This document shows, piece after piece, positions 18,433 through 21,959 of a stretch of 64,000 bases of DNA. Each line of letters starts with the position of its first letter. Position 1 is the first letter of the stretch. The position numbers and the translations under genes were made by a program. Under the pieces are notes generated by a model. The model did not search any database and was not told the DNA's origin. It worked only from the letters and a program-made list of their open reading frames with translations. The stretch comes from Eledone cirrhosa. Taxonomy: Eukaryota. The DNA is taken from contig OZ024740.1 in the NCBI GenBank assembly GCA_964016885.1, forward strand, positions 331,700,001 to 331,764,000, in the 5' to 3' direction.

Positions 18433-18798
18433 ATAAAATATTAAACAAATAATGAATAAAACAATGAAACAGTTCCTTATATTAAACAAAAAAAGTTCAT
18501 TATTTAACGATCGTTTCTAGGATATATATGTGTTAGAATTGGCATGCATATTCAACAGATCTATGTACAAAATTATACAAAATTATACAAACTATCAAGA
18601 TTAAATATACATACCAACACATATATATGCCGTCTTCAGAAATAATGAAATATATTTATTGATAATAACAACAATTCAAAATTTCAGGTCCGTTTGGGAA
18701 CTGAGTTCAAAATTGACCAATGAAAATACAAAAAGTTTTATGCAGTTTGGTGTGTGTATATACATGTAACCAACCCCGTACACATATTTATACAAAGA
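18433..18798 (-). repeat. 366-bp PLE-type terminal repeat, left arm; near-perfect inverted copy at 21594-21959
   Basis: Direct reverse-complement match over 366 bp. Confidence 0.95.
18496..18649 (-). ncRNA. Type I hammerhead ribozyme with ~115-nt helix II domain
   Basis: ttcattattt CTGAAGA [long rod] GAAA CGATCG TT aaataatgaa: 10-bp helix I, palindromic ACGATCGT helix III, GUU site. Confidence 0.82.
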
Positions 18799-21593
18799 TA
18801 TATGCTCAACATGCATACGCTTGCCAAAAAGATGTATGCAAATACAAAAAATTTAAGGCTAATGTCTCTGTAAGTTTATAATCCACAGATAAAATGCGTA
18901 TAGACACATAAATATGAAATAAGTGTATACACATATTCTCATATTCACCCATATCCATACACTCACACACACGCGCGCGTATATGCATAAACATACACAT
19001 AATTACGAACATACATACACACACACACCCCCACACACATATATATGTGGATATAATATTATCATAAGCACATGGATATTAATTCACTCACATAAACACT
19101 GCCACACACATTTAGATCAAGATACAGAAATTAGGTGGGAGGGGGGGAGAGGTCAGTATTCAACTGTTTGGGCAGACTGCTTATTTATAGATGTATCTAT
19201 AAACTTCGAAATAAAAAGAAAAGAAAAGAAAAAGAAAAAAGAAAAAAGAAATATATCAAGAAAATATATATATATATATATATATATATATATATATATA
19301 TATATATATATATATATATATACACACACATACACACATCTACATATACAACACACACACACACACATATATAAACATATACATATATATATATACACAC
19401 ATACATATATATATATACATATATATATATACATATATATACACACATATATACACATATATACACACACACATATATAGACACGCATATATATACACAT
19501 ACACGCACAAATACATACACATACATACTTATATACATACAGACATACACATACATACATATATATACACACATATACATACAGACATACATACATACAT
19601 ACACACATACACACATACATACACACACATACATACTCATACATATACATAGATATATATTCACCCACACATACGTACTTATATATACGCATATATACAA
19701 ATACTTACGCATCCATATAACGGTATATACATACAAAACACCACTACACTTTCACACAACTCAGACATACAAAGAAAAAGGTATATACATATACACATAT
19801 ACACATACAAATAGAGATACATATACACATATATATATATATACATATATATATATATATACATACATATATACAAATACACACGCATCCATATATGCAT
19901 ATATACATACAAACACCACTACACTCTCACACAACTCAGACATACAAAGAAAAAGGTATATACATATACATATATACACACATTAATAGAGATACATATA
20001 CACATATATATATATATATACACATATATTTATATATATACCCACACACTCATACAACCATAAACACACATACAAAGACATACATACACACATATATATA
20101 CATATATATACACACACACACAAAAACACGCATACACATATATATTTTTACACTTACATATACATATATATACACATACACACCTTCACATATATACATA
20201 TACACATAAGTTATATTATAATAATAAATAATATATATATATACACATACGAATATATATATATATACACACATAGATATACATATTTATATATACACAC
20301 ACACACACACACTCACATATATATGTGCGCACGCGTACATATATACACATACACACATATAGACATAAACATATACATGTGCATACATGTACATACACAC
20401 ATATACCCACATAGATACGAAGATAGACATAAATATAGAGAGACATACATATACATACACATATATACATACACATACATATACACATATATATATATAT
20501 ATACACACACATACACGCCCACACATATATACACATATACACACATACATATATATATATACACACATATATACACATGCATATATACACATATATATAT
20601 ATACATATATATATACACACACAATCATACATTCTTATTTGCATGCGCATATATGTATTTTTATACTCAGATATAAACACCCAAACATATATACACCTAC
20701 CTACATATATATTCTTACATACACGCTTACAAACACAGATGATAATAGTATGGGGGAAAGGGGGGGTGGAGAAGGGGATTATAGTAAATATATGTTTCAA
20801 GAAACATAGAAAATTAATCTGTATTTGGATCTCAATATATGTTTTTACATAGTTTCAGTGTTAGGAAATGCAAGAAATAAGGCAAAATTATGCATTTCAA
20901 AATAAGTATATCATTAATTATATGTTAACTAAACCAAAGAAAGTTAACATATTGATTTCTAAGGTGTAAATTAGTTAGGTTTATAATATTTGAAGCAGAA
21001 TTTTGAAGTTAAATAGTAGTAGAGTATTAATTATAGTATAACTAAATTAAAGTTATTAACGTTATGGTATCAATATTAGGAAATGAATTTAGTAATAGGG
21101 AAAAAACAAATAAAGTATTACATCGGTAGTAGAATATAAATTAAAGGTTAACTAAATTAAAAATTATATATTAATTTCTATAGTATATGTTAATTAGGTA
21201 TATAATAAATAAAACAGATATTGTATTTTATCAATAGCAGAATATAATTATATGCAAATAGAAATCAAAATTAATACATATACATATACATATACATACA
21301 CATATATATATATATATATATATATATATACACATATACATACATACATACACATACATATACATACATACATATACATATTTTTTCAAAAATTGCAAAG
21401 AATATATTAACTAGGTATACATCCAAAACACATCCCATTCTATGATTACATGACACTCTGCAATCCGTCTGTATTAGGATACTAATTTTAAGCCAATTAA
21501 ATTAAATTTTTAGGTTGACTAAATTTAAAACCAAATTATAAATATATTTCTAAAATGTATATTAATTAGGTCTATAATACTAAAAATTATTTC

Positions 21594-21959
21594 TCTTTGT
21601 ATAAATATGTGTACGGGGTTGGTTACATGTATATACACACACCAAACTGCATAAAACTTTTTGTATTTTCATTGGTCAATTTTGAACTCAGTTCCCAAAC
21701 GGACCTGAAATTTTGAATTGTTGTTATTATCAATAAATATATTTCATTATTTCTGAAGACGGCATATATATGTGTTGGTATGTATATTTAATCTTGATAG
21801 TTTGTATAATTTTGTATAATTTTGTACATAGATCTGTTGAATATGCATGCCAATTCTAACACATATATATACTAGAAACGATCGTTAAATAATGAACTTT
21901 TTTTGTTTAATATAAGGAACTGTTTCATTGTTTTATTCATTATTTGTTTAATATTTTAT
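21594..21959 (+). repeat. 366-bp terminal repeat, right arm
   Basis: Reverse complement of 18433-18798; runs into (TA)n. Confidence 0.95.
21743..21896 (+). ncRNA. Type I hammerhead ribozyme with long helix II
   Basis: Helix I 21743-21752/21887-21896, CTGAAGA 21753-21759, GAAA 21875-21878, CGATCG, predicted cleavage after 21886. Confidence 0.82.

Follow-up and report, generated by a model that had tools for sequence, protein, structure and literature searches.

A head-to-head PLE insertion with inverted hammerhead arms in Eledone cirrhosa, and the tails and 5' ends of its parent family

Introduction

The 64,000-nucleotide stretch of Eledone cirrhosa DNA analysed here, called the window below, contains two near-identical inverted arms, each with a hammerhead motif facing outward, around an interior in which no ORF is apparent. 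The question is whether such an arrangement is an element that moves as a unit, or whether it is what an autonomous element leaves behind. An earlier note on this DNA had offered both readings, one being a PLE whose truncation point falls within a very long 3' UTR and which has an inverted copy at its terminus, and the other a non-autonomous retrozyme-like unit. We consider it very probable that two 5'-truncated copies from a young Hydra-clade PLE family make up the locus as a single head-to-head insertion in (TA)n, likely produced in one event by two RTs that copied the same uncleaved RNA from starts 135 nt apart. Direct support comes from the parentage of the copies, the boundaries of the insertion, its private junction, a one-tail rule, the sharing of haplotypes within insertions, and a hotspot of 5' ends.

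Anatomy of the locus

A pairwise alignment of the left arm (18433-18798, minus strand) with the right arm (21594-21959, plus strand) covers 366 bp of each with 1 mismatch, an A at 21871 versus a C at 18521; the position is unpaired in stem II, and the right arm's variant is private to it. The arms and their outward-facing type I motifs (18496-18649 minus, 21743-21896 plus) are thus as the earlier note had described them. The bounds it gave, 18433..21959, hold for the arms, but the element reaches 135 bp further left to include a tail that had been missed (18298-18432), so that the full insertion is 18298-21959. The absence of an ORF stands over this larger interval, where all ATG frames are at most 179 aa and microsatellite-derived, with no complex ORF. 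In terms of a complete reference copy described in the next section, the long arm starts at position 2970, 241 nt past the ORF stop, and its other end is the tail, reaching 18298; the short arm is without a tail. Long and short arms overlap by 3 bp at 21594-21596, a microhomology, and both ends of the insertion lie in (TA)n, with flanks that differ at the two ends. The features are as follows.

18255..18296, no strand: (AT)n target microsatellite of the left flank, common to the neighbouring PLE insertion
18298..18432, minus: 135-bp PLE tail, the parent's 5' leader from pLTR end to ORF; the same sequence lies upstream of the ORF in copy L045 and in the tandem arrays
18433..18798, minus: left 366-bp arm, the 3' end (pLTR) of the long copy
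18496..18649, minus: type I hammerhead motif of the long copy; core 18639-18633, predicted cut 18506/18505, 5'-end hotspot base 18646
18799..21596, minus: rest of the parent's microsatellite-rich 3' UTR, from reference position 2970
21594..21596, no strand: head-to-head junction with 3-bp microhomology, private
21594..21959, plus: short inverted 5'-truncated copy, tail-less, reference 6056-6421
21743..21896, plus: the short copy's type I hammerhead motif, with its core at 21753, the hotspot base at 21746 and the cut predicted after 21886
21957..22069, no strand: (TA)n target microsatellite of the right flank

Within the 3' UTR there is a second copy of the surroundings of the parent stop codon at 21495-21585 (minus), 82% identical. 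Another head-to-head PLE insertion in (TA)n, at 14102-18254, directly adjoins the 18298-21959 insertion; it has nested inverted segments, a 33-bp tail at its right end only, and a broken C-terminal GIY-YIG frame with a CxxxxCxxC linker (Neptune/Nematis-like).

The parent element

The genome-wide comparison was run on the 3.0-Gb source genome. The arm is found there in hundreds of copies at 98-99% identity, many of them as inverted pairs 5-8 kb apart. Comparison with 20 sister loci shows the window interior, in minus-strand orientation, to be family sequence; at 14 of these loci the match to the interior ends at 21596 while the family sequence runs on toward the ORF. The interior had been taken for microsatellite and AT-rich sequence; it is indeed microsatellite-rich, but it is not random filler, being the family 3' UTR that is present in many other copies. 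Of the two readings in the earlier note, the truncated PLE was therefore the right one, the interior being the 3' UTR of an autonomous parent.

As reference we use L066, a complete natural copy with a unit of 6,421 bp, in which the tail occupies 1-135, the ATG is at 288 and the stop at 2729, bounding an ORF of 813 aa that is followed by a 3' UTR of 3,692 bp with the hammerhead core at 6214. Full units in the family measure 6.4-6.7 kb, and they also stand in head-to-tail arrays on C6, C1 and C2 (G000 C6:49.525-49.566 Mb; C1:126.835-126.864 Mb; C2:262.008-262.035 Mb). The arrays on C6 and C2 hold several intact 813-aa ORFs, and each of the three is closed by an inverted arm, with one tail apiece. 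These arrays are the likely donors of the long copies.

The 813-aa ORF encodes an RT with a C-terminal GIY-YIG endonuclease, recognizable by the motifs FDI/MGS/YRDD/FLD and IVYKC..YIG..R..H. Pfam gave no significant match on three copies of the ORF; Atlas look-alikes of the protein carry the GIY-YIG and RVT_1 families at 0.96-0.99, and BLASTP aligns it to the window's other PLE RT at 2e-6. Section 11 of PMC8557442 gives as the diagnostic Hydra-clade set an RWK-like motif, DKT, CxCX5C and CxxC/CxH around the E and N, with no GxKF/Y and no CCHH. The parent protein has RWR at 37, DKT at 115, a CxCX5C linker (CNCRNKANC) at 673, CxxC as CRLC at 771 and CxH as CNH at 799; G.K[FY] is absent from the 813-aa protein, and CCHH is absent from the translation as read by eye. 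Judged by these motifs, the parent appears to belong to the Hydra clade. In the families described in PMC8557442, such as Penelope-13_HM and Hydra-1_Obim, the Hydra-clade C-terminal EN+ PLEs likewise combine RW[KR], DKT and CxCX5C with the lack of CCHH and with (TA)n targets, and their hammerhead, in sense orientation, lies close to the 3' end and often cuts after U. The insertion target of the present family is (TA)n, nearly all termini inspected running into it, and its sense-strand hammerhead sits in the pLTR. The hammerhead sequence differs from that of Hydra-1_Obim, so the window's parent is another family.

The family is young, and the parent is unusual in the lengths of its 3' UTR, its tail and its stem II. 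Short size (<3 kb), typical of the Hydra clade but not defining, is not seen in the 6,421-bp unit; the Hydra families listed in PMC8557442 are of 1.1-3.0 kb, unlike the window's parent with its microsatellite-rich 3' UTR of 3.7 kb in a unit of 6.4-6.7 kb. The tail is 135 bp versus 30-40 in the Hydra-clade PLEs of that source, and stem II here carries an insert of 115 nt. At the tail ends in L072-L109, a sample biased by the query, variable extra (CA)n stands between the tail end and (TA)n, which is possibly slippage at RT initiation.

Other PLE material in the window includes Hydra-type ORF fragments at 34289-35536, 36509-37039, 39100-40455 and 43670-44683, the first of which is 44-49% identical to the parent protein over two blocks, and a GC-rich RT frame of 650 aa from another PLE clade at 2070-4022 (minus).

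The hammerhead motif

In both arms the motif is of type I, with a stem I of 10 bp (TTCATTATTT/AAATAATGAA), the core CTGAAGA at 21753 (plus) and 18639 (minus), GAAAC at 21875, a stem III of 2 bp closed by a palindromic loop, and the triplet GUU, for which the cut is predicted after 21886. A scan of the window with Rfam gave 0 matches at the gathering score. The core positions C3-A9, G12-A14, A15.1-U16.1 and the NUH triplet are all present; the canonical G10.1-C11.1 pair is missing, with C.A in its place. Unpaired or non-G-C variants at this pair are listed for other PLE hammerheads in the supplement of PMC8557442. An alignment of 14 related sequences has an invariant core, and both sides have changed in 10 of its 39 pairs, a count that 0 of 500 shuffles reached and below which all slid controls fell; since the 14 rows are related, this covariation counts as support and not as a probability.

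Stem III is a 10-nt palindrome, suited to dimers; the two motifs at the locus lie on opposite strands, so they cannot dimerise in cis. In the folding, stem I has a competitor in a downstream look-alike of the 5' strand. In a short transcript, folded from one base inside the hotspot onward, the active fold is 8-10 kcal/mol less stable than the minimum. The 366-bp duplex of a read-through RNA is predicted at about -580 kcal/mol, versus -82 when the arm folds by itself. Cleavage by the monomeric hammerhead is predicted to be rare. The earlier note had imagined a transcript that folds into a panhandle and cleaves itself, but in the modelled read-through RNA the panhandle would work against cleavage by burying the sense hammerhead in the duplex. 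A buried or poorly folding hammerhead fits what is reported for Poseidon PAc in PMC11167929 (Frangieh et al. 2024), where cutting by the hammerhead required protein and the substrate was RNA that had not been cleaved.

Elsewhere in the window, a related Hydra-type family is represented by its hammerhead at 38187-38331 (minus), which shares the long stem II, has GUA as its triplet and differs in stem I by a compensatory change, and there are three short, more canonical type I motifs with cores at 42956 (plus), 54763 (minus) and 32447 (minus).

One tail per insertion

A tail at one end and none at the other is the rule in the family. From 86 fetched stretches, in which the long copies had been picked by likeness to the window, 59 pairs have both ends in view and were counted; 58 of these two-armed insertions have the tail at exactly one end. 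In the subset not selected on the tail the count is 28/29, with P about 6e-8 against 50:50. The exception among the 59, L046, is flanked at both ends by the same stretch of about 200 bp, which suggests that it was rearranged secondarily. A second set, made up of short pairs from pattern searches and again not selected on the tail, also gave 28/29, and the exception there, L178, has tail and no tail at its true ends. With the two sets merged and one shared pair removed, 86 of 87 distinct insertions are one-tailed, and none has a tail at both ends. In the 38 long pairs it is the longer arm that bears the tail 22 times and the shorter arm 16 times. One-armed insertions also occur (e.g. L091, L100, L184, L191).

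The arms within an insertion differ by 0.46% on average, versus 2.4% between insertions. The near-identity of the window's arms, which the earlier note had read as suggesting a recent event, is therefore generic to the insertions of this family and does not mark a special recent event, and it points to one template.

The 5'-end hotspot and the short palindromes

Position 6207 of the reference, 7 nt ahead of the hammerhead core, is where many family arms begin; the site follows a C-A step. The exact hammerhead 17-mer from the hotspot base is found 5,940 times genome-wide, preceded by the templated C in 4,187 and by G in 433. The templated C is lacking in 1,753 of the 5,940 (30%), nearly all by truncation, and these divide into the 433 with G and 1,320 (about 75%) without. 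The 30 G loci that were examined all turned out to be genuine 5' ends, and in some of them a single G follows the host (TA)n; about 9 of the 30 G's are readable from the partner arm. An extra G is a known trace of cap copying. Among the first 30 loci of the 17-mer, 10 end at 6206-6207 and none of the others, one of which belongs to a related family, within the next 45 nt. Thirty unselected arms that cover the cleavage site start at 6204-6210 in 16 cases, reach upstream in 9 and start inside the hammerhead in 5, with 0 at the cleavage site. In an older subfamily, 3 of 5 such ends are displaced 3 nt upstream to another C-A step, with a G at or next to the end (L225, L232, L233). Of 10 insertions that continue through an upstream pLTR, none ends at the hotspot, from which it follows that read-through or multimeric RNA is needed for long copies. 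Contigs from four runs of unknown kind show a roughly tenfold step in depth near the hotspot; contigs cannot show starts or levels, so the step is not counted as evidence.

A hotspot at the cleavage site itself was considered and rejected. The post-cleavage motif lacks the preceding GTT in 743 of 8,112 occurrences, and of 30 such loci examined, 27 carry another triplet (mostly copies from an older GUA subfamily), 2 begin at the cleavage site, one of them by way of stem I microhomology, and the remaining 1 is unrelated.

The commonest product of the family is a palindrome of roughly 560 bp. The centres of these short palindromes differ, and in a tree of 220 arms they are interspersed with long copies, at least 20 label changes being forced and 8 identical sets being mixed, by which we reject the idea that they are a self-propagating lineage. 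The labels cluster more than in shuffles because of sampling and near-copies. From the differing centres and the mixing with long copies it follows that the short palindromes are recurrent by-products. At some junctions (L136/L137, L151/L152, L082, L178, L181) there are 2-4 reiterated copies of the first 7-13 bases of the RNA or of the whole hammerhead, suggesting realignment, more than once, at the template's 5' end.

Proposed mechanism

For the window insertion, we picture the GIY-YIG endonuclease as cutting both strands of (TA)n, with each DNA end priming one RT of a dimer, one at the pLTR end, which gives no tail, and the other at the tail end. The tail at 18298..18432 would then mark the distal RT start site and the tail-less short arm the proximal one. 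The two cDNAs would stop early, here at 366 nt and about 3.3 kb, and their 3' ends would be joined by microhomology or a few inserted bases. The PLE RT is not known to carry an RNase H, and its absence would let two enzymes copy the same stretch. The capped transcript would start 7 nt before the hammerhead core. An RNP that primes at the 5' tail copy would run off at the cap and leave a palindrome of roughly 560 bp, and priming at the 3' tail copy on read-through RNA, for instance from the tandem arrays, would give long arms like those of the window. The locus in the window encodes nothing and is predicted to be a dead end.

The broader proposal is that an asymmetric RT dimer builds every two-armed insertion of the family in this way, with both target ends primed on one uncleaved RNA at two fixed sites, the capped transcript beginning inside hammerhead stem I, and run-off from the 5' tail yielding thousands of palindromes of about 560 bp with cap-derived G's. 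To this proposal as a whole we give about an even chance.

Alternative explanations

A non-autonomous unit, retrozyme- or MITE-like, might move as a fixed 3.5-kb element with hammerhead-bearing inverted repeats, and the near-identical 366-bp arms, the lack of an ORF and the thousands of related hammerhead arms in the genome would be in keeping with this. Such a unit should carry its junction with it, and the earlier note had asked whether the junction at 21594 recurs at other loci. With a query that crosses the junction, 39 of the 40 best-scoring candidates (of 2,231) stop at 21596 and the window alone spans it; no other measured family junction matches the one at 21594. A shared boundary at 21594 in the arm matches, which had seemed to be a recurring junction, was rejected as the edge of the query. 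The inverted boundary differs from insertion to insertion, with overlaps of 1-5 bp, like that in the window, at 21 of 50 resolvable junctions. For the earlier note the retrozyme-like unit would fall if junctions differed among copies and the interior were simply the 3' UTR of an autonomous PLE; a private junction and the parent's 3' UTR are what we found. Even the short palindromes vary in centre and form no lineage of their own. The animal non-LTR retrozymes of bioRxiv 10.64898/2026.07.22.740005 are, like this locus, non-coding and provided with a type I hammerhead of PLE pLTR origin, but in that preprint they are defined as direct tandem repeats, each with its hammerhead, that amplify as a unit, whereas the arms here are inverted with hammerheads on opposite strands, and the locus is unique. 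The window locus is not a retrozyme, and a fixed mobile unit of this general kind is so improbable that we set it aside.

Taking the head-to-head insertion as given, the short arm might come from fold-back self-priming or template switching of one cDNA, or from later repair, and not from a second RT on the other target strand. Self-priming has been proposed for palindromic PLE junctions in PMC3846280, reiterated and snap-back junctions are present in this family (L151, L152, L178, L230), and secondary inversion does happen, as in L046. Copying within one cDNA cannot, however, put a tail on the short arm alone, yet this is the arrangement in the 16 of 38 long pairs; the two truncation points are independent, and the flanks of the window insertion differ at its two ends. 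We hold the fold-back origin to be unlikely, and continue to prefer two RTs. A separate doubt concerns the hotspot, which might be a structural stop of the RT at the base of stem I and not a capped transcription start. The hotspot does lie inside the 5' strand of stem I, and the majority of hotspot ends have no extra G. Ends made by a structural stop should lie at the 3' foot of the helix, and 0 of 30 are found there; such a stop would not account for the G excess of 433/1,753, seen where the surroundings are very AT-rich and with single G's following host (TA)n, nor for the ends of the older subfamily moving by 3 nt to another C-A step, again with G in 3/5. The structural stop therefore seems rather doubtful to us, and the capped start is the reading that we carry forward.

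Relation to known systems and meaning

The architecture of the window insertion has already been published (PMC8557442, PMC3846280, PMC4209133), and the locus itself is ordinary. The supplement of PMC8557442 has Penelope-13_HM with a 5'-truncated inverted copy and a hammerhead on both strands. The inverted-pLTR insertions of PLEs in Arkhipova et al. 2013 (PMC3846280) and in Fig. 2 of Craig et al. 2021 (PMC8557442) have the same head-to-head 5'-truncated copies, tail at one end, microhomology junctions and partial tandems, and for Pen1_Av these two sources give spacers of 0.9-1.5 kb before the pLTR. The tail is described there as optional or often at one end; here it was counted, at exactly one end in 86/87. 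A search of mainly freely accessible papers found no publication of a strict one-tail rule or of a capped 5'-end hotspot for PLEs. Dual PLE hammerheads on opposite strands, in pairs 100-700 bp apart and ascribed to truncated PLEs, are in Cervera and de la Pena 2014 (PMC4209133). The hammerheads of that paper share with the present one a palindromic helix III needing a dimer, and are given as of low activity; unlike them, ours has no conserved G10.1-C11.1, and its helix II is far longer.

The mechanism proposed here resembles what PMC11167929 describes for Poseidon PAc in vitro, where two internal RT starts define the tail, both strands are cut and extended, an RT dimer is predicted, and the RNA that serves is uncleaved. 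It differs in that Poseidon PAc is of another clade, and that here the tail lies upstream of the ATG with the starts 135 nt apart.

As presented in PMC8557442 and PMC11167929, how PLEs make inverted arms and tails, and what the hammerhead does, are left open, and it is there that the family is moderately informative. In such genomes, pairs of hammerheads on opposite strands and short palindromes should be read as by-products of insertion, and not as retrozymes or MITEs. A young family with intact 813-aa copies, a 135-bp tail, a one-tail rule and a hotspot of a single base provides sharp predictions for the existing in vitro assay. If the asymmetric-dimer model is true, it would explain the tail, the inverted arm and the more-than-unit donors together, and this genome would be a population-scale record of PLE integration.
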